Origin: Methanosarcinales archaeon
GTDB taxonomy: Archaea > Halobacteriota > Methanosarcinia > Methanosarcinales > Methanogasteraceae
Assembly (NCBI GenBank): GCA_030604085.1
Contig: JAUVWP010000002.1
Coordinates: forward strand, 1-46,154
Direction: 5' to 3'
DNA length: 46,154 nt
Shown: piece after piece, positions 1,387 through 25,215 of the stretch
Layout of the letters: the number at the start of each line of letters is the position of its first letter
Position numbering within the stretch: position 1 is the first letter of the stretch
Position numbers and translations under genes: made by a program
Notes under the pieces: model-generated
Database searches by the model: none
Told to the model about the DNA's origin: nothing
What the model saw: the letters and a program-made list of their open reading frames with translations, nothing else

Positions 1387-4016
1387 TCTGGTGCCTCCAT
1401 CACGTCCTTTACGATTCGCTGTATGTGGTAACGATCGAAGCCGCGTGACGGGTCAACTCCGTCCTCGCCGTATTTTGCCTGCACGATCATGCCACGGGTG
1501 TCCCTGACCGTGCCGTCATGCTGCGCCTCCAGATCCTGAAGCGCATTCACCATCCTACGCTGGAGATACCCTGACTGGGACGTCCTGACAGCAGTGTCCA
1601 CGAGACCCTCCCTGCCACCGATGGCGTGGAAGAAGTACTCGACCGGAGAAAGCCCGCTCTTATACGATGCCTGTACAAATCCGTGCGCCTCTGCGCCGCG
1701 ATCTCCTTTCTTGAAATGCGGAAGCGTTCTACCGGAGTAGCCCCGCTGGATGCGGGCACCCCGCACCGACTGCTGTCCGACACACGCCGCCATCTGTGCA
1801 AGATTCAGCATCGAGCCACGGGCTCCTGATACCGCCATCGCAACCGCAGAGTTATCGATACCAAGATGCAATCCTGCCTTGTCGCCAGCCTCGTCACGAA
1901 CCCTTCCGAGAATCTGCATGATCCGAAGCTCAAGCGTCTCTTCGCTGCTTCGCCCGGGCAGCGACTCAAGCTCGTTATGTTCATACTTGTCGATCAGACT
2001 TGCGATGCTCTCCTTTCCGTACATCGCGTCCTTATTAATCTCCTGTATCTGTTTGACCGCCTCTTTCGGGATATCCTCATCATCGATTCCGAAACTGAAT
2101 CCGTGATACATGATGCCCCGGATCGCAAGGTTTGTCATATTGTCAATAAACGCTGCCCCGGCAGCAGTCCCAAACTCCCTAACTATCTTGTTTACTATCT
2201 TTCCCTTGAACGCGCCGATCGATTTCTCATCGATGGTCCCACAGAGCAGTTCCCCATTACTTATGACGACATACGCATCGTTCGGGCAGTTCTCCTTCTT
2301 GCATTCATCACATTCCTCGCATATCTCTGCATTATATTCGAGGTTTAACCCTTCTGGTAGAATCTGGCTGAATATCTGCTTTCCGGTCCAGTATGGGGTG
2401 CCATCCTCGATATAGTCAGGCTGCGGCAGGTCGCGCACCCCTGATTTCCGCAGGATCTCGAGTGCGCTGTTCTTGTCGATCGCTTTCTCACGCGTCAATA
2501 GGAACATGCCTGTTATGTGATCGTGTATTCCGCCGATGATCGGACCGCCAAATCTTGGCGAGAGGATGTTCTCCTGAACCCGCATCAGTATCGCTGCCTC
2601 TGCCCTTGCCTCCTCGTTCTGCTGTACATGGAGATTCATCTCATCGCCATCGAAATCAGCGTTGTACGGCGGGCAGACCGCTGGATTTAACCGGAACGTC
2701 TTTCCGGGCATGACCCTGACCTCGTGCGCCATGATGCTCATCTTGTGAAGCGACGGCTGCCTGTTGAAGAGCACGATGTCGCCCTCCTTGAGGTGCCGGT
2801 CCACGAACCATCCGTATTCGAGCATATCTGCAATCTCCTCGCGGGTCGTATCGCTGATTCGCAGTCTGTGCCCATCTGTCCGGACCACGTAGTTCGCGCC
2901 CGGGTGATTGACCGGACCGCGGCGCACGTACTCCCTGAGTTCCTCGATGTTTCTCGGCACAACCTTAAACGTGACTGTCAGTTCTCTTGCAATCGCCTCA
3001 GGAATGCCGACCTCGTTGATCGACAAGTTAGGATCCGGCGAGATAACAGTCCTCGCGCTGAAATTGACACGCTTGCCAGAGAGATTGCCCCTGAACCGCC
3101 CTTCCTTCCCTTTCAGGCGCTGGGACAAGGTCTTCAAAGATCTTCCGCTCCTGTGCCTTGCCGGAGGTATCCCTGAGACGCTGTTGTCCATAAAAGTGGT
3201 TACATGGTACTGCAAGAGTTCCCAGAGATCCTCAATGATCAACTGCGGCGCGCCCGCTTCCTTATTCTCCTGGAACCTCTGGTTTATCCTGATAATGTCA
3301 ACGAGTTTGTGTGTCAGATCGTCCTCGCTTCGCTGCCCTGTCTGAAGTATGATCGACGGGCGCACAGTGACCGGCGGCACAGGCAGCACCGTCAGGATCA
3401 TCCATTCGGGGCGCGCGTTGTTCGGGTCTATACCAAAGACAGGGAGATCTTCATCCGGTATGTGCTCGAACCAGTTCCTGATATCGCTTGGAAGCTGTTT
3501 GTCCCCGTCCTCATAATACGTGGTCGGTTTTTCGTACGTGATCTTCAGTTGGTGCTCGCCGCAGTACGGGCACACTTCGACCTTGCTCGCCTCGGCAAAG
3601 ACATATTCAACCGGCGAATCGATGGTCTGCCCCTGACTCCTCCGAGCCGCGATCTGCTCGATATACTCTTTCTTCCGCCCTGCATCCAGAAGCAGTCGGC
3701 TGCAACTTCTGCACGTACTCCTGAGCAGATTCCGTATCTGCTTGGCAAACCCGACGTGCACGCAGGGTGCCACCAGTTCTATGTGCCCAAAATGACCCGG
3801 GCACTCCCCAGCCCTTCCGTTGCAGGTCTTGCACCGCAATCCCGGATCGATGACGCCGAGTCTGGGATCCATGAGCCCCATATCGATCGGAAAACCATCC
3901 TCATCATAAGTATCTGCCGTGATAATCCTGGTGACGCTCATATTCCGGTATTCCCGCGGCGAGATCAAGCCGAATTTTATCCGTGAGATTCTCTTTGGAG
4001 CACTGATCTGTTTCAT
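1383..4016 (-). CDS. rpoA1: DNA-directed RNA polymerase subunit A'
   Basis: The ORF 1383..4100 contains the zinc-binding N-terminus and the catalytic NADFDGDEMN motif. The likely start is the ATG at 4014-4016 (MKQISAPKRISRIKFGL...), because the 28 upstream codons look non-coding. Confidence 0.95.
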   Translation of the reverse strand: MKQISAPKRISRIKFGLISPREYRNMSVTRIITADTYDEDGFPIDMGLMDPRLGVIDPGLRCKTCNGRAGECPGHFGHIELVAPCVHVGFAKQIRNLLRSTCRSCSRLLLDAGRKKEYIEQIAARRSQGQTIDSPVEYVFAEASKVEVCPYCGEHQLKITYEKPTTYYEDGDKQLPSDIRNWFEHIPDEDLPVFGIDPNNARPEWMILTVLPVPPVTVRPSIILQTGQRSEDDLTHKLVDIIRINQRFQENKEAGAPQLIIEDLWELLQYHVTTFMDNSVSGIPPARHRSGRSLKTLSQRLKGKEGRFRGNLSGKRVNFSARTVISPDPNLSINEVGIPEAIARELTVTFKVVPRNIEELREYVRRGPVNHPGANYVVRTDGHRLRISDTTREEIADMLEYGWFVDRHLKEGDIVLFNRQPSLHKMSIMAHEVRVMPGKTFRLNPAVCPPYNADFDGDEMNLHVQQNEEARAEAAILMRVQENILSPRFGGPIIGGIHDHITGMFLLTREKAIDKNSALEILRKSGVRDLPQPDYIEDGTPYWTGKQIFSQILPEGLNLEYNAEICEECDECKKENCPNDAYVVISNGELLCGTIDEKSIGAFKGKIVNKIVREFGTAAGAAFIDNMTNLAIRGIMYHGFSFGIDDEDIPKEAVKQIQEINKDAMYGKESIASLIDKYEHNELESLPGRSSEETLELRIMQILGRVRDEAGDKAGLHLGIDNSAVAMAVSGARGSMLNLAQMAACVGQQSVRGARIQRGYSGRTLPHFKKGDRGAEAHGFVQASYKSGLSPVEYFFHAIGGREGLVDTAVRTSQSGYLQRRMVNALQDLEAQHDGTVRDTRGMIVQAKYGEDGVDPSRGFDRYHIQRIVKDVMEAPE

Positions 4017-4550
4017 TGTATACCAGTCTCTAATGTCTGTGGGATAAAGGTTTTGATTCATAAGGGGTTGTCGTGCCTTCTGGCGTTGACGCCCACGCAC
4101 GGAAACAGGTTTTTATGTGAGTGGGCACAACCCGAATGTCTAGGTGATAGAATAGCCGACAGGATGGACATTCAGGCAGCGTCGGTGAGACGAACGTGAC
4201 ATCCTCTTCACAAATTCCTTTATATCGATGTGACCTCATAATAATTATTACCACGTCTCTTTTTTAATCCGTTCGCGTGGTTGTGACTGTGCAGCCCTTT
4301 TTCACCAGGGCTGCACACTTCAGTTCATCAACCCCTGAGAATGCCTGCTGCGAATCGTGAAATAGTATCTTTCGACACGCGGGTCACGTGCATGACTTGA
4401 ATGCCGATTATCAGGCCAAGCTGCACAGCTGCGGCACAGCCATTAACCCGGGTTCCAACGATTTTATCCACAACTCGGGCAATAAGCCCGGGTTCACGGA
4501 ATATTCTGTAACACCGGATGAGACGACACCATAATGCTTGCGCGGAAGTT

Positions 4551-5867
4551 TCACCCCTCAATCATCATCCCAACCCAGTCCGAGACGTCCGTAGCAGCAT
4601 CCGCGCCGCCATCGCCGCCGCGCAACATGTCGGTCACAGACTTTAGCACCTGAACCGATGTCGGATGCATCATCATAAATAGATCGACACCAGCAAGCGC
4701 AAGCGCTAGTCCCGTCGTTATCTCCCAGATCGGTCCCCTGTATTCGCGGGGTCCCCAGTCCGAGTCCTCTTTGAGTGGCGAAACCGCCATCCACGACTCT
4801 CTCGCGCCCCATGCGTTCGTGGTTCCTGATGACATCGGGAAGTTCAGTTCCTGGTCACCGATTAACCCTGCGAGCCGGATGCGCTCGATGTTTGAGTAGG
4901 CGTAATCGAGACCGTAGCCAAGCGCCGCGGTTGTCGGATCCATCACAATATCACAACGCTCGATGCCACACTGTTTCATCAGTTTGCGGTTGAGTTCCTT
5001 CTGCGCATTGATCTCGAGCTGCGTCCACGAGAGGATCGCGTGACCGTACTCCTTTGCTGCGGCTGCGATCCGCTGGTAGTCCATGTTCAAGTTTGCAGAC
5101 GCGATCAGGCACCGCTCACCTTCGGCAGCCTCTGCCGCCTTCTCAAGAACCTCGGGATCCTTATCAGGATTTCCTGAACCCCCAATGATGAGCGGGACAT
5201 CGACAGCCTGCAAGACATCCTCAACCACCTTCGCTGCATCCGATGCAGACGTGTCCTTGATCGACGGATCCGTGCTTATCAGGTGGATCGTGACCATATC
5301 CGCGCCGAACTTCGAGACCACCTTCTTTGCCCACTCAGCCGGGCTCTCAAGCACATCCTCGTAGTTCATGCGCACAGCGCGTGCCATTCCGATGGGCATG
5401 TCAAAGACATCGATCGAGACGTAGTTCGGATTTGGCATCGGCGCATCGAAGTAGAACGGCAGCGCATGTTCGCCGCCAAGCGTGACCGTCGTTTTGCGTG
5501 TGCCGCCGTCAGAGGATGTTGCACCGAGCACAACCTCCTCGATCCCGTGCTTCCACTCAGAGACCGGGTCCACGTCAAACGATGCCGGGATCAACTCCTG
5601 CGGGATCCGTGATTGTATCGGGGACGGCAGCGTCATCGGCTGCATATACGGCACCTGCCCGGCTGGACCGCCCATCATGCCTGCGACGTTATTCAGCCGC
5701 GCCGCGATCTGCGCAATCTCATATCCTACCGCCTGCAGCAGTTCCTGACCACCGCCCCCGCCCTCAAATTCGATCTCGATATCCCCCTCTATCGTAACGC
5801 CTTTCAGTTCAAGCACGTTCTCGAGCAGTTTATTGAGATCGGATAGCGTGATGGTGGTAGTTGTCAT
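4551..5867 (-). CDS. cdhD: acetyl-CoA decarbonylase/synthase complex subunit delta (corrinoid Fe-S protein small subunit)
   Basis: 438-aa ORF with a CdhD-like N-terminus ([34 protein letters not shown], Gly-rich linker) and a TIM-barrel-like remainder. No other cdh genes are in the window. Confidence 0.9.
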
Positions 5868-5890
5868 GCGGATTCCAATGAGATTACAGG

Positions 5891-5899
5891 TTTATTAAA
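5891..5899 (-). promoter_or_regulatory. TATA-box-like element upstream of cdhD
   Basis: The minus strand reads TTTAATAAA about 24-32 nt upstream of the cdhD ATG (5865-5867). This fits an archaeal TATA box and a leaderless or short-leader mRNA. Confidence 0.4.
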
Positions 5900-6048
5900 T
5901 GTTGCAGATTGCTCAGGTTCGGCAGGGGCAGTCAACTCTTATCCGGTGCATATTACGGACATTGGGGTTGACCGCAGATGACCTTAACGAACACTTATAA
6001 AGGGACGAATATTAACAATAGCTAAATAGAAAGGAAGGTAGTAGAGAA

Positions 6049-6252
6049 ATGGCAAAAATGAAATATTGTGGGAATTGCAAACAATGGGTAACACCAACAA
6101 AGGGAGTTAACTGGGTGATAGCAATAATACTGCTCATATTTTTCGTTATACCGGGAATAATCTACATCATCTGGGCCATGAGCAAAGGCGGAAAGTGTCC
6201 CATGTGTAATAGCACAAATTGGTCTATCCCACCAAAAGAAGAGAATGAATAG
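6049..6252 (+). CDS. small membrane protein with a split zinc ribbon (LITAF-like topology)
   Basis: 67 aa with the layout CGNC - 12 aa (VTPTKGVNW) - about 22 hydrophobic aa (VIAIILLIFFVIPGIIYIIWAM) - CPMC. A purine-rich AGGAAGGT lies upstream and the gene sits in an AT-rich islet. Confidence 0.6.
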   Translation: MAKMKYCGNCKQWVTPTKGVNWVIAIILLIFFVIPGIIYIIWAMSKGGKCPMCNSTNWSIPPKEENE

Positions 6253-6311
6253 GGTGCTAAAATTTCGATAAATTTAAGTGCATAGAGTGATTGAAGCTTA
6301 AGGAGTAGAAA

Positions 6312-6851
6312 ATGGGCAGTGGAAATACAGACCTCTTAGAAATATTGTTATTAAAAAAGCGCACGATTAATTACTCATTGGATAAAATGAAAGACGCATA
6401 TAGCATTATTTTTCCAAAGGTTGAGAAAGGAAAAGAGATTGTTGTGACAATGAAAGATATTGAAGATGGTGCATGGCTTATATCCTGCTACGGGGAGTAC
6501 TTCTTTTTAGAAGTAACCTCTTTTTTCGATGCTTTAGCCAGAAATCTTACAGAAAACCAAGACCTCAAGAAAAACATTAATTTTAAAAAATGGATTGAAT
6601 GGCAATATAAACACAATAATGACGATTTCATTCGTTATTTAAAAAAGCAGTACGATAACTGGTACAACGACTTCAAAAAAATCAGAAACAGAATCGCTCA
6701 TCAATGCCATCTGTATTATGAAATAGATAAAATTTTAAGCATCAATGTCAAGAGTGGTGAGAAAGGTAAAATTGAATTTTGCACGATGACGATAGGTGAG
6801 AATAGAAAAGTGGAACTGTTCGATTACTGTAATGATATTCAAAAAAATTAG
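6312..6851 (+). CDS. hypothetical protein with a HEPN-like Rx4H motif (putative RNase/Abi-like)
   Basis: 179 aa with a strong AAGGAG Shine-Dalgarno 8 nt upstream. KIRNRIAHQ (R125-x4-H130, nt 6684-6701) is preceded by helix-like segments (EYFFLEVTSFFDALARNL, FKKWIEWQY), as in stand-alone HEPN families. AT-rich codon usage. Confidence 0.55.
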   Translation: MGSGNTDLLEILLLKKRTINYSLDKMKDAYSIIFPKVEKGKEIVVTMKDIEDGAWLISCYGEYFFLEVTSFFDALARNLTENQDLKKNINFKKWIEWQYKHNNDDFIRYLKKQYDNWYNDFKKIRNRIAHQCHLYYEIDKILSINVKSGEKGKIEFCTMTIGENRKVELFDYCNDIQKN

Positions 6852-7038
6852 AAGATATGATTGCTTTTATCGAGAAGAATAACTATTGGAAAAAACGATA
6901 CCGATACCGCGTAAAATAAAAGAAATATCTCTCTTACGGCTCGCGGATGCCCCCGAATTCATTCGGAGGTGGAGCGGCTGGGACTTCATAGCGTACATTG
7001 GGGTAACCTATTTGTTTGGGAGTCCCTTACTCCATACA

Positions 7039-8568
7039 ATGGCAAACCGGAAGGAATTTCACGAGTTGATACCGATCGGAAGAGCGGAGGCGCTACTTAG
7101 ATCGATCATCCGCAGCAGCACCGAGGTCGTTCCGCTCGATCTGGCATACCACAGCGTCCTTGCAGAGGATGTTTTCGCGCCTATTGATGTGCCATCGTTT
7201 GACCGTGCAGACATGGATGGCTACGCGGTGCGTGCGGCAGACACCTACAGTGCGCGGGAAGAAGAGCCGGTACAACTTGTGATCGCGGGCAGGATCCCTG
7301 CCGGGGACGTTCCGTCGCTTACGATCTCAGAGGGCACCGCTGCCGAGATATCCACCGGCGCGATGCTCCCCCAGGGTGCTGATGCGGTTGTGATGGTCGA
7401 GTACACAAAGGAAGACGAATCTTCGTCTTCGGTCTCTATTTACCGGGCGGTCCACGTATATGAAAATGTCATGCGGGCAGGAGCCGACATCCGGGACGGG
7501 ACCCGGGTGCTTCCAAAAGGAACGCATCTCGGATCGCGTGAGACCGGTGTTCTTGCAGCCATCGGAGTCTCGCATGTCCGGGTTCGCTCGCTTCGCATCG
7601 GAATCATCTCGACCGGAAACGAACTCGTCCCTGCGGGCGAGAAAATGGAGCCCGGACAGGTGTACGATGTGAATGCGCACACGCTATCTGCTGCGGTGCG
7701 CGAATGCGGGGCAACTCCGGTTGCGTACGGGATCGTTTCAGATGACGAAAAAAAGACGGTGGAAGTTCTCGAGAAAGCCATTTCAGAGTGCGATCTGATC
7801 CTCACATCTGGAAGCACGTCTGCCGGATCCGGGGACATCATGCCCCACATCCTCGAGGAGTGCGGCGAGGTGCTCGCGCACGGGATCAATATCAAGCCCG
7901 GTAAGCCGATGATAATAGCGAAGATGCAAAAACCAGTCATAGGGCTTCCAGGTTTCCCAACATCGGCGCTGAGCATGTTTTATTATCTGGTAGCTCCGCG
8001 AATACGCGATGTTCTCGGCTACGACTCCGGGGCAGCAGCGAGACCGCAGCAGGCTGTGCTCGGATCAATGATCCAGTCGGCAGGAAGGCACCAGCTCCTG
8101 CCGGTAGCGCTGGTGCGGGGGATGGCGTATCCTGTGATCAAGAGTTCAGGCGCGATTACAGCGCTTGCATCCGCGGACGGGTTTATCGAGATCCTTCCCG
8201 AGACCGAGATCATGGAAGCAGGAGAGATGGTCGAGGTTACGCTCTTTGGGGATGCGTCCGCAAATGATCTCGTATTCGCGGGAGCAGCTTGCGATGAGGT
8301 AAACCGGCTCATGGAGGTGCTGCCGTTTCGTGTGCGGATGATCCACACTGGCGTTGCCGCCGGAATCGATGCTCTGCAAAACGGGATAGCAGATATCGCA
8401 GGGATCCCTCTTTCCACAGATGAACTGCCTGATATGGATGGCGTTTCGGTCATACATGAATTTCTGCACGGAGATGGGGCGTATACGCTCATTGTGCTTC
8501 ACGAACGGATCGATTCTGAGGGTGTAAAGGCGTTTCTTTCGGCGATATCTGATTCGTTTAAGGCATAA
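7039..8568 (+). CDS. moeA: molybdopterin molybdenumtransferase MoeA with a C-terminal PBP-like domain
   Basis: MoeA-like core (PSFDRADMDGYAV, STGNELV, SGSTSAGSGD, PGKP, GLPGFPTSA) plus a roughly 100-aa C-terminal extension, as in archaeal MoeA-PBP fusions. The ATG at 7039 is preferred over the TTG at 6886. Confidence 0.85.
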   Translation: MANRKEFHELIPIGRAEALLRSIIRSSTEVVPLDLAYHSVLAEDVFAPIDVPSFDRADMDGYAVRAADTYSAREEEPVQLVIAGRIPAGDVPSLTISEGTAAEISTGAMLPQGADAVVMVEYTKEDESSSSVSIYRAVHVYENVMRAGADIRDGTRVLPKGTHLGSRETGVLAAIGVSHVRVRSLRIGIISTGNELVPAGEKMEPGQVYDVNAHTLSAAVRECGATPVAYGIVSDDEKKTVEVLEKAISECDLILTSGSTSAGSGDIMPHILEECGEVLAHGINIKPGKPMIIAKMQKPVIGLPGFPTSALSMFYYLVAPRIRDVLGYDSGAAARPQQAVLGSMIQSAGRHQLLPVALVRGMAYPVIKSSGAITALASADGFIEILPETEIMEAGEMVEVTLFGDASANDLVFAGAACDEVNRLMEVLPFRVRMIHTGVAAGIDALQNGIADIAGIPLSTDELPDMDGVSVIHEFLHGDGAYTLIVLHERIDSEGVKAFLSAISDSFKA

Positions 8569-10104: not shown

Positions 10105-10123
10105 GCCAAAAAAGGTGAATAAT

Positions 10124-11248
10124 ATGAATAACAAGATCACAATGTTAGTATTGTCCGCGGTGTTGATCGCTGTGGCGCTTTCGGGAAGCGTGCAGGAAAC
10201 TTCAGAGATTGGAACGCCGGGCGGGGTGCCGCAACCGGGTGTAATGCCGGATGCGACTTCACCAGTGCCCACCTCGGAACTGGCATCATCTGGTGAACCA
10301 ATCCCCCCATTAAATCAGTATTTAGATAATTTGATATCTATAGAAATATTCTTTTCGGATAATGTAACAGAGCCACTCCATGTGAATCAAACATTCAACC
10401 TGACATGGGTTATAATGCCGCATGGCAACATATCAGCAGAAGTAGGGCTAAGTAATCTAAGTAATCTAAGTAATCTGGCATGGGGTAATCTGCGAACATT
10501 CGTTTTATTGGATGGCAATACAACATGGAAGGGTGACCTGATAGCCAATAAATCGGTAAAGCAGAATCTAACTCTAAAAGCGTTAGAGCCGGGGGAATGA
10601 ACAATTACAGCCACTGCCCAGCCAATCACCGGAAAAAAAGAAGAATCCGAAACCGAACCACTTGTAAGCCTGACCCCTCGTCCAATAGCACCGATACTGG
10701 GCAGATGGAGTAAGACTATAACAGTCATAGGAAATGATACCCCTAATGCCTCTATTTCAACCGATAAACTTGTTTATGAAGAGGGAGAACCTGTTAAGGT
10801 TACGGTAACACCAATGGATAAAATTTATACATGGAATTATGCATATTTCACTTTTTATAGATGGGAGGATGGGGGATGGAATATGATACCAATCGAGCCA
10901 TGCGGAGCAGGTGGAATATTGCCTTTTCAGGTGCATAATCATGATGGGTGGTGTATAGATTTTATTTTGAAAGTTGACCACGTCGACCCCATTGTTAAAA
11001 CATGGGATCAAAGAGAGCTTGTCAGACGCGAACTTGGAGAACGCTCAGAGTATGTTTATGAGCCGGCTCCATGTGGAAGGTACAAAGTTGGATATAAATT
11101 TTATATTTATGCAAGCGGTGGCGAGAGAACTGTTGAAACCGAGTTTGAGATAATAGAAAGGACTGATAAGGGAGATCAACGAATGAATTATCCCGATTAC
11201 TTCGAAACACTGATGACCCGGATTAAACAGATTTTCACAGGTTTTTAG
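10124..11248 (+). pseudogene. secreted, N-glycosylation-sequon-rich protein interrupted by one in-frame TGA (10598-10600)
   Basis: AAGGTGA Shine-Dalgarno then an ATG at 10124. Signal-peptide-like N-terminus (MNNKITMLVLSAVLIAVALSGS), a Pro-rich linker and many NxS/T sequons. ORFs 10115..10600 and 10814..11248 share a frame with no other stop between them. Confidence 0.5.
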
Positions 11249-11388
11249 TCAGCTGGTTTCTGCCGCACTCTGATATCAACTGATATCCCGCTTAAGGGCA
11301 GGTACTCAGCCTTTGGCGAAGAGAAGCAGCGATTGGAGCGGATCAAACACTCGGCAAACAGTATATTTCGACAGTTTTTTATAGATCG

Positions 11389-11562
11389 ATGGCACAGGTA
11401 TCGCATATAACTGACTGGAAAGAGACGCTGGAACGGATAGCACCGACATCTCGCCACTATCCTGGATGGCGCTGCCCGAGCAGGAACTATAATATGCAGC
11501 CATCGAAAACGCAAAAAAATTGTGATATGGCTATAACTACAACCGAGAGGATTGTTACATGA
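11389..11562 (+). CDS. 57-codon chimeric small ORF (expression uncertain)
   Basis: The ATG at 11389 sits where the GTG at 8651 sits in the duplicated segment. Product: MAQVSHITDWKETLERIAPTSRHYPGWRCPSRNYNMQPSKTQKNCDMAITTTERIVT. Its TGA overlaps the deaminase ATG (ATGA at 11559-11562). Below the ORF-track size cut-off. Confidence 0.25.
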   Translation: MAQVSHITDWKETLERIAPTSRHYPGWRCPSRNYNMQPSKTQKNCDMAITTTERIVT

Positions 11563-24966: not shown

Positions 24967-25215
24967 TAGAAGCACCTCATAACCGAAAAAACGAGTTTCT
25001 CAATGAATTGCTCAATTTATAGTGTGATACGTCCGGTATATAAGGCTTTCCATAAAACGGGCTGCAAACTTGCCCGGGTGTCGCATCGAATATCCGGTTA
25101 TTTTAGTGTGATTATTTACCGCGGAATATGTTAGTATCGCCGCAGCGACACTATCTGAAAATACCAGTGAAAACACTTCAGATTTTCAGACAGTGCCTTT
25201 GGGGCGTTTGGGTTA

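Follow-up and report, generated by a model that had tools for sequence, protein, structure and literature searches.

The contig JAUVWP010000002.1, whose entire stretch of 46,154 nt is called the window below, carries a short AT-rich stretch with two small open reading frames (ORFs), ORF1 and ORF2, between cdhD and moeA. The question raised by this locus is whether the two genes form a dedicated toxin or defence module, as proposed in a preliminary description which took ORF1 for a LITAF-like zinc-ribbon membrane protein and ORF2 for a HEPN-motif protein, or whether they came to be neighbours independently of each other. The stretch is a horizontally acquired foreign islet of low guanine plus cytosine (GC) content in a contig of the anaerobic methanotrophic archaea of clade 2c (ANME-2c; Ca. 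Methanogaster-like). The window's housekeeping proteins belong to clusters at 90% identity with named members from metagenome-assembled genomes of ANME-2c, Candidatus Methanogaster or Methanosarcinales. With a probability of roughly 0.6 the islet is a mosaic, in which an independent ORF1 module is joined to a truncated copy of a stand-alone HEPN-type abortive-infection ribonuclease (RNase), and it would have been assembled from two independent accessory-gene modules of a gene pool shared by sediment archaea. This reading draws on the observed composition, the absence of the islet in relatives, its second locus, a frameshift, the conservation of both families and their genomic contexts, and from these we infer that a functional link between ORF1 and ORF2 is lacking and how the islet was inserted.

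The GC fraction is about 0.30-0.40 across positions ~5850-7050 compared to 0.55-0.60 in the flanks in a windowed analysis, and the 933 bp from 5994 to 6926 have the lowest GC of all such windows in the contig (0.333; mean 0.523, sd 0.034). The GC fraction at third codon positions (GC3) is 0.44 in ORF1 and 0.38 in ORF2, relative to 0.623 +/- 0.039 in 28 long ORFs. Both GC and GC3 agree with the AT-rich stretch described previously between cdhD and moeA, and so does the presence of two co-oriented genes, both on the plus strand (Table 1); the line of sequence starting at 6301, which was said to have 19 G+C, has 20.

The islet was found to be missing from close relatives and present at an unrelated locus. 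Profile searches covered 36 fetched loci, which are given L numbers (such as L001) where they need to be told apart. Two contigs of close relatives, L027 and L028, have 92.5% nucleotide identity to the window and share with it the gene order moeA, EMC3-like gene, MTAP and amidohydrolase. They align with the window only from 6982, a point 57 nt ahead of moeA, and further upstream a DUF3592 gene and two small genes replace both the islet and cdhD. In a JGI contig from another metagenome, L005, the same two genes are located between MgtE genes and a radical-SAM gene. Window positions 5994-6926 are colinear with L005 2804-3738 at 90.5% nucleotide identity and window positions 6933-7025 correspond to L005 4283-4374 at 82% identity. 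The 545-bp gap between these two segments in L005 is filled by a 531-bp ISL3-derived non-autonomous element (3741-4271) directly after ORF2. Its inverted repeats are 22 nt long (GGCTCTTTGG...), the target is duplicated over 8 bp (AGAAATGC), and a C-terminal fragment of a transposase is encoded within it (3803-3961, minus strand; PF01610, E 9.6e-13). Since this element has a target duplication of its own, it is a secondary insertion. The absence in L027 and L028 together with the near-identical copy at the unrelated L005 locus documents that the islet was horizontally acquired, confirming its proposed foreign nature at the very junction where a comparison of relatives had been suggested. No mobility gene is present near the islet in the window, as noted before, unlike in the sister copy. 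Homologues of ORF2 at 70-77% amino acid identity occur in metagenome-assembled genomes (MAGs) labelled Bathyarchaeota and Halobacteriota, and most contigs with homologues have 36-43% GC overall, indicating a low-GC donor pool. The islet records that genes recently moved across phyla into the uncultured, methane-oxidising ANME-2c.

Relatives of ORF1 and ORF2 were found together only in the window and in L005. Of the distinct contexts, seven for ORF2 and about ten for ORF1, two each contain the pair. The two paired contexts are ~90% identical at the nucleotide level with equal synonymous divergence (dS) and consequently represent one evolutionary event, so that the pair does recur elsewhere, as had been anticipated, but only as copies of a single islet. 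No ORF1-family match was detected near any other member of the ORF2 family, the remote ones included. ORF1 homologues have other followers: exact and near-exact ones are followed by a gene for a 328-aa lipoprotein in L029-31 and L033-35, by one for a PGF-CTERM protein in L032, by one for a 248-aa lipoprotein in L014 and by nothing recognisable in L008-13. All the lipoprotein and PGF-CTERM followers belong to ORF1 homologues at >=90% identity. The dedicated two-gene module was in this respect not borne out.

The flanking sequences reveal where the two genes were joined. The 3′ flank of ORF1, TAGGGTGCTAAAAT..GATAAAT, is common to the window, L029 and L032, and from ~6266-6270 onwards the window agrees with the sequence preceding ORF2 in L001, L007, L017 and L006. 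In L001, L007 and L017 this ORF2 5′ flank follows a hairpin and a T-run and contains the conserved TATA-like GATAAAATTTA. The switch of flanks makes the pair in the window a junction of two modules, each with a promoter-like element (Table 1), and the islet illustrates the reshuffling of small promoter-bearing gene modules at short AT-rich junctions. Between the window and L005, dS is equal for both genes, 0.19 and 0.20, and the non-synonymous divergence (dN) is seven-fold apart, being 0.016 for ORF1 and 0.118 for ORF2. Judged by these substitution rates, the two genes are inherited together in this lineage and bear no sign of co-evolution.

Secreted lipoproteins sharing a signal and lipobox ending in ...IAIVAIVAAVIFAGC(V/I)EEE are encoded in L029 (5241-6227), L014 (3815-4561), L001 (2501-3259), L007 (1184-1930) and L017 (104-571). 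In low-GC contigs these genes follow ORF1 homologues and precede ORF2 homologues, which suggests a donor arrangement of ORF1, lipoprotein and ORF2 from which the window islet may have been derived by deletion.

Table 1. Coordinates of the islet, its genes and its border elements in the window.
Feature	Position	Strand	Remarks
13-nt direct repeat, left copy CGGACATTGGGGT	5956-5968	+	right copy CGTACATTGGGGT at 6992-7004
Core of the acquired low-GC islet	5994-6932		33% GC; colinear with the L005 copy; not in L027/L028
TATA-box-like TTATAAA, first islet bases	5995-6001	+	~48 nt upstream of ORF1; L005 homology starts exactly here
ORF1, 67 aa, CxxC / beta-hairpin / 23-residue hydrophobic stretch / CPxC	6049-6252	+	split zinc ribbon, LITAF-like topology
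Junction of ORF1 and ORF2 modules, with ORF2's own TATA-like element GATAAATTTA	6262-6276	+	flank comparison
ORF2 as read in the window, 179 aa, HEPN-like, C-terminally truncated	6312-6851	+	homologue comparison
A7 run, where 1 nt was lost and the frame shifts	6841-6847	+	CAAGAAAAATTA or CAAGAGAAAATA in relatives
Displaced C-terminal coding segment of ORF2, KLEDMIAFIEKNNYWKKRYRYRVK	6845-6919	+, -1 frame	stop TAA 6917-6919
GC-rich 3′ element with hairpin, TTCA loop	6933-6981, stem ~6950-6969	+	shared with L005
Native upstream region of moeA, where synteny with relatives begins	6982-7038	+	92.5% identity to L027/L028 from 6982

ORF2 is very probably a member of the HEPN superfamily, representing a new family nearest to the Apea- and Swt1-type clades. 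This assignment is carried by an invariant arginine and histidine with an acidic D73, by recurrent matches to HEPN families in Pfam, by one member exceeding a curated cut-off and by neighbours typical of defence islands. A family profile search with HMMER against 1.84 billion cluster representatives (E <= 1e-3) retrieved only 24 proteins (clusters at 50% identity), two of which are long repetitive proteins with partial profile matches in several stretches. The family is very small and, as far as its members are labelled, archaeal; the labelled members are all from archaeal MAGs of ANME-2c, Bathyarchaeota, Halobacteriota and Nitrososphaerales. Relatives were detected at a single locus in GTDB species genomes (a Halobacteriota MAG), at four loci in JGI metagenome contigs and at none in IMG/VR, the INPHARED phages or the PLSDB plasmids. 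In an alignment of 20 family members reaching down to 20% identity only K15, D73, F91, L110, R125 and H130 are invariant. The Rx4H motif previously recognised in KIRNRIAHQ is thereby present with both its R (R125, 6684-6686) and its H (H130, 6699-6701) invariant, and D73 is encoded at 6528-6530. The residue after R125 is N in most of the 20 members and H or K in three. D73-x3-R77 is found in the window and among close family members; of the remote members, roughly one in two has D-x3-[KR].

The HEPN signature has been described as Rx4-6H in which the R is followed by a polar residue (N, D or H), and as a second feature an acidic residue on helix 2, typically in Ex3[KR] (PMC3710099). ORF2 has the former in R125-N126-R-I-A-H130 and the latter in D73, within the predicted helix 47-80. 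The HEPN fold is a four-helix up-down core of two alpha-hairpins with the motif at the end of helix 3 or the start of the connector, and inserts between helices 2 and 3 are frequent (PMC3710099). An AlphaFold2 (AF2) model of the full-length relative P0001, 93% identical to the window ORF2 (predicted local distance difference test (pLDDT) 79, predicted template modelling score (pTM) 0.78), has helices at 6-33 and 47-80, the second including D73, then an insert that contains a short helix (91-101), and further helices at 105-128 and 131-142. R125 is at the end of the third long helix and H130 in the break at 129-130, followed by a hairpin and a final helix. The predicted helix topology fits the published HEPN layout. 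The most frequent Pfam matches across the 20 members were HEPN_Swt1 (6/20), HEPN_Cthe2314 (2/20) and HEPN_Apea (2/20), and the per-member HEPN matches that were printed span the motif region. P0036, with E 2.9e-23 to the ORF2-family profile, scored 26.3 bits for HEPN_Apea and exceeded the cut-off of 24.4. Pairwise dN/dS values of 0.28-0.64 show a coding gene that would be under relaxed or partly diversifying selection. ORF2 adds to the HEPN superfamily an unannotated and very rare family for which there is no Pfam, NCBIfam, PADLOC or PHROG model.

Relatives of ORF2 repeatedly adjoin defence genes. In L016 an Eco57I-type methylase is located upstream and an ORF with a subthreshold match to Lar-like (restriction-alleviation) zinc ribbons downstream. 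A protein with GmrSD_N and Schlafen AlbA_2 domains is the neighbour in L017, DUF4062 and ParE in L019, and ParE, Mrr_N and UPF0150 in L001. An N6_N4 methylase and a TIR protein adjoin the relatives in L023-25, and two C5 methylases, a BpuJI/NOV_C endonuclease and Vsr are found near the one in L026 (Nitrososphaerales). Directly downstream of the ORF2 homologue in L017 is a 165-aa ORF (1277-1774) ending in ...WWQDYNSVKHDL, without Pfam match; situated between the HEPN-like and GmrSD/Schlafen genes, it may be another defence-island protein.

Among known systems, ORF2 resembles the toxins of HEPN/MNT type II/VII toxin-antitoxin pairs in being a small Rx4H HEPN protein that is predicted to be toxic. 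It differs in that no MNT (nucleotidyltransferase) gene was found beside ORF2 or beside any relative in about eight distinct family contexts, extending the lack of an MNT antitoxin noted previously, and in that its Foldseek matches to 7ae6 and 7bxo are not significant. The ApeA/BMEI1217 family is embedded in restriction-modification operons (Anantharaman et al. 2013, PMC3710099), and ApeA, a single-gene anti-phage system, is a stand-alone abortive-infection HEPN tRNase without antitoxin (bioRxiv 10.64898/2026.01.26.701840). The ORF2 family shares with the Apea-like HEPN (PF18739) the R-N-x3-H at the end of helix 3, with P0036 over the Pfam cut-off, and its members likewise adjoin methylases and restriction genes. 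ApeA has, however, a beta-rich N-terminal domain of ~300 aa (ApeA-NTD1) and forms large ligand-activated oligomers, whereas the ORF2 relatives lack such a domain, are ~200 aa long, all-alpha save for one hairpin, and archaeal. The PADLOC model of ApeA, if in the library, matched 0/20 family members (E <= 1), and PADLOC returned at this threshold nothing but three weak CARF/Csm2 matches. ORF2 was thus rejected as an ApeA system proper, having neither the large N-terminal sensor domain nor a PADLOC match. The commonest subthreshold matches, Swt1-like/Abi2-type (PF18731) and Cthe_2314-like (PF18730), lie over the Rx4H region but are all under the curated cut-offs (best E 0.0042 and 0.0012), and nothing is alike outside the motif-bearing helices.

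In its full-length form ORF2 would be a stand-alone, infection-triggered RNase of the abortive-infection or toxin type, as its family and context suggest. The predicted active site would combine R125, N126 and H130, situated where helix 3 ends, with D73 of helix 2, and most likely both subunits of a dimer would contribute to it, as they do in other HEPN enzymes. The RNase activity characteristic of the superfamily is metal-independent and depends on R and H. No dedicated antitoxin would be needed to keep the enzyme inactive, just as for ApeA or AbiD/F-type proteins. RNase activity and a defence role are predicted here from sequence and neighbourhood. Experimentally characterised archaeal defence genes are few, and the ORF2 family is a candidate single-gene archaeal abortive-infection RNase.

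The copy of ORF2 in the window is shorter than its relatives. Its 19 homologues at 63-93% identity are 196-206 aa long, except for one that is interrupted by the end of its contig and one whose tail is longer, and in the 90% cluster 10 of 11 members have 200-202 aa and the window copy alone 179. Relatives run on past the stop in the window with the peptide KLEDMIAFIEKNNYWKKRYQY (also given as KLEDMIAFIEKNNYWKKRY...), which the window retains in another frame (Table 1). At the site of the frameshift L005 reads CAAGAGAAAATA and the window CAAAAAAATTA, and adding back one A restores a protein of 202 aa aligning end-to-end with the homologues. The preliminary description had taken gene 2 as an intact 179-aa gene and missed this frameshift. 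The last 23 residues, which are lost, make up the second half of the final helix (169-189, pLDDT ~93 in the AF2 model of P0001), and the ORF2 of the window is probably inactive or attenuated, unless the assembly is wrong at this point or the shift is bypassed by slippage along the A7 run. With a truncated copy and an unsupported two-gene system, the find is of use to annotation and offers a candidate for experiments, and is not surprising.

ORF1 is predicted to be a monotopic membrane zinc-ribbon protein with LITAF-like topology. Its cysteines are Cys7, Cys10, Cys50 and Cys53, the second knuckle reading C50PMC53, and the hydrophobic stretch W22-M44 has a central Pro-Gly and a mean Kyte-Doolittle value of up to 3.2 over 19 residues; this stretch was correctly recognised before, with a length of 22 instead of 23 residues. 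The Cys pairs and the PG are kept across 11 ORF1 homologues, and ORF1, with dN/dS of 0.08-0.16, is by this measure under strong purifying selection. If one zinc is shared by both Cys pairs, these are on the same side of the membrane, implying monotopic or re-entrant insertion. The AF2 model has strands at 5-7 and 12-14 and helices at 22-31 and 33-46 with a mediocre pLDDT of 72, and its helices, kinked around the Pro-Gly, are compatible with a hairpin and a kinked transmembrane helix alike. The LITAF/SIMPLE-like domain occurs in LITAF and CDIP1 (PMC5095921). Its hallmarks include a single bound zinc ion and monotopic insertion with the two termini in the cytoplasm. Like these proteins (PF10601), ORF1 has two CxxC knuckles separated by short beta strands and a hydrophobic stretch of ~22 residues, and the proposed LITAF-like architecture holds to this extent. 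The score for Pfam zf-LITAF-like (PF10601), 12.6 bits against a cut-off of 23.8 (E 0.16), stayed below threshold, as did those of all the 6 of 12 ORF1 relatives that matched this profile (best E 0.026). Unlike LITAF, ORF1 is also a stand-alone 67-aa archaeal protein without structural match, and the similarity may be convergent. TATA-like elements similar to that at the left end of the islet are found upstream of ORF1 homologues in L032, L029 and L014, and the element in the window is a putative promoter element of ORF1. The function of ORF1 would be independent of ORF2; elsewhere it heads operon-like pairs with secreted lipoproteins.

Two variants of ORF1 were observed, P0020 (L014 3465-3761), a protein of 98 aa in which the region of the second knuckle is duplicated internally, and P0030, in which the ORF1 N-terminus is joined to a PGF-CTERM tail. 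Several ORF1 homologues carry the JGI label "flagellar basal body-associated protein FliL", to which the sequence gives no support.

Several observations weigh against the mosaic of an ORF1 module and a truncated stand-alone RNase. The window ORF2 is itself under threshold for every Pfam HEPN family, reaching 16.3 bits for HEPN_Swt1 (cut-off 27.5, E 0.012) and 12.4 bits for HEPN_Apea (cut-off 24.4, E 0.22), and has no usable PADLOC, NCBIfam or PHROG match. Significant structural matches, which had been expected previously, were obtained for neither protein: Foldseek with the ORF1 model gave no PDB match, and the ORF2-family model had best E values of 0.3 and 0.09 in PDB and BFVD, the HEPN toxins 7ae6 and 7bxo ranking 15th and 39th with TM-scores of 0.27-0.47. 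A profile search of PDB sequences returned no HEPN entry and only spurious weak matches to an OTU domain and ferritin. The earlier classification of gene 2 is largely upheld at the level of the superfamily, by its motif, D73 and P0036, and not by the window protein's own profile score or its Foldseek result. The association with defence islands comprises about six contexts as a raw count without background comparison, and the frameshift may be a MAG assembly error. Furthermore, there is no terminator-like hairpin between ORF1 and ORF2 in the window or L005, and with the same dS for both genes, co-transcription and a local functional link are conceivable.

The latter point bears on the dedicated two-gene toxin/defence module, in which the zinc-ribbon protein would serve the HEPN RNase as anchor, sensor or neutralising partner, a split version of fused bacterial proteins. 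Such fusions of a HEPN domain with 2 transmembrane segments and a C-terminal Zn-ribbon exist in bacteria (PMC3710099, section 15), and in their combination of HEPN domain, membrane segment and zinc ribbon they resemble the pair and keep a small probability of functional pairing alive. In the bacterial proteins the parts are in one polypeptide and are conserved together, whereas here they are two genes found paired in one lineage only. The co-orientation of the genes at a distance of 59 nt, uninterrupted by a terminator-like hairpin, and the intact pair at two loci with dS of 0.19 and 0.20 would be in line with such a module, but the two ~90% identical islets are one event, the five other ORF2 contexts and all remote members are without an ORF1-like gene, and the genes that come after ORF1 homologues at >=90% identity encode lipoproteins or PGF-CTERM proteins. 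ORF2 moreover has its own conserved TATA-like element and is elsewhere preceded by a hairpin and T-run, and the seven-fold difference in dN gives no sign of co-evolution, making a dedicated module quite unlikely. A variant of this idea, a long shot, is that both modules were recruited in ANME-2c as a working split system with a zinc-ribbon sensor or tether, a virus-released HEPN RNase and the A7 run as a slippage switch. The LITAF-like monotopic zinc-ribbon protein would then sit in the membrane and release or activate the RNase on perturbation of the envelope by a virus, and the A7 run would keep the full-length toxin low; if true, this would be a two-gene archaeal counterpart of the bacterial HEPN/TM/Zn-ribbon fusions.

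It is unlikely that ORF2 is no nuclease at all and instead another helical protein, such as a regulator or an RNA or ligand binder, in an islet of ORFan cargo without a defence role. Non-catalytic HEPN-like domains do exist (PMC3710099), and both the missing significant match to HEPN structures and the subthreshold scores of the window protein for every profile would agree with this. R and H are nevertheless among just six invariant residues and have canonical spacing, a polar N and an acidic residue on the preceding long helix, three HEPN families of Pfam recur as top matches, and the neighbours are repeatedly restriction-modification, TIR, GmrSD or ParE genes. Very doubtful is the derivation of the islet from a larger provirus, plasmid or integrative element, of which it would be a decayed remnant with viral or counter-defence cargo. 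ORF1 relatives (39-66% identity) on three IMG/VR contigs, the ISL3 remnant abutting the L005 copy, an IS91-type transposase and PemK nearby in L029, a weak 13-nt direct repeat around the islet and the variability of the spot upstream of moeA among relatives point in this direction. ORF2, in contrast, has no relative in IMG/VR, the INPHARED phages or the PLSDB plasmids, genes for an integrase, a capsid or replication are missing around the islet in the window, as is a tRNA target, and the ISL3 element of L005 arrived secondarily with its own target duplication.

The borders of the islet were inspected for signs of the mode of insertion. Integration into a tRNA gene was ruled out, no tRNA gene being present near the islet and the nearest being at 25215. 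The 13-nt direct repeat CG[G/T]ACATTGGGGT brackets the islet with 12/13 positions matching, but as an attachment (att) site it was rejected since 19 of 2000 shuffles had an equal score (nominal p ~0.01) and L005 has none, leaving it as a weak lead for site-specific insertion. A leftward extension of the homology between the window and L005, a 27-nt match scoring 25 against a shuffle maximum of 26, was too weak to be retained. The GC-rich 3′ element matches L005 4283-4330 at ~82-88% and includes a compensatory A-U to C-G change; its hairpin folds at -22 kcal/mol with a z of only -1.1 and may have a putative role as terminator or in recombination. An integron cassette with attC, suggested by the GC-rich hairpins that follow genes, was also rejected, as there were no GTTRRRY/RYYYAAC-type ends by eye and no integrase, and the hairpins are unremarkable in their thermodynamics (z from -0.8 to -3.3). 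Rfam searched over 5700-7300 returned two chance-level matches only, and a scan for sigma-70 promoters and terminators is uninformative for archaeal DNA.

The TTCA-loop hairpin is followed by a box, GACTTCAnAGCGTACATTGGGGTAACCTATTTGTTyGGGAGTCC, in window 6933-7025, L005 4283-4374 and L027 1050-1142. Hairpin and box come after ORF2 where the islet is present, in the window and L005, and precede moeA in the islet-free relatives; the stems differ by compensatory changes. The hairpin of the window is like that of L005 and its box like that of L027, indicating a recombination junction near 6982. The combined element is a candidate for a terminator, a promoter module or an att-like site alike. The genes replacing the islet in L027 (1-1143) and L028 (1-1277) have GC fractions of 0.42-0.47. 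ANME-2c relatives thus vary in what lies upstream of moeA, and synteny breaks at precisely this spot.

The right neighbour of the islet, moeA, starts at ATG 7039 and encodes a product of 509 aa, the same as in relatives, and not at TTG 6886. The left neighbour, cdhD (4551-5867, minus strand; Pfam CdhD E 8.6e-81), stands alone beside the RNA polymerase A′ gene (region 4100-4551) with no further large cdh ORF within ~0.5 kb downstream, an unusual placing for a gene of a carbon monoxide dehydrogenase/acetyl-CoA synthase (CODH/ACS) subunit. A second insertion of lower GC (0.39-0.46) in the window, at 10105-11558, is not present in L027 and L028, where the MTAP and amidohydrolase genes overlap. It has two ORFs, neither with a Pfam or PHROG match, of which 10115-10600 encodes 161 aa with a signal-peptide-like N-terminus and 10814-11248 encodes 144 aa.

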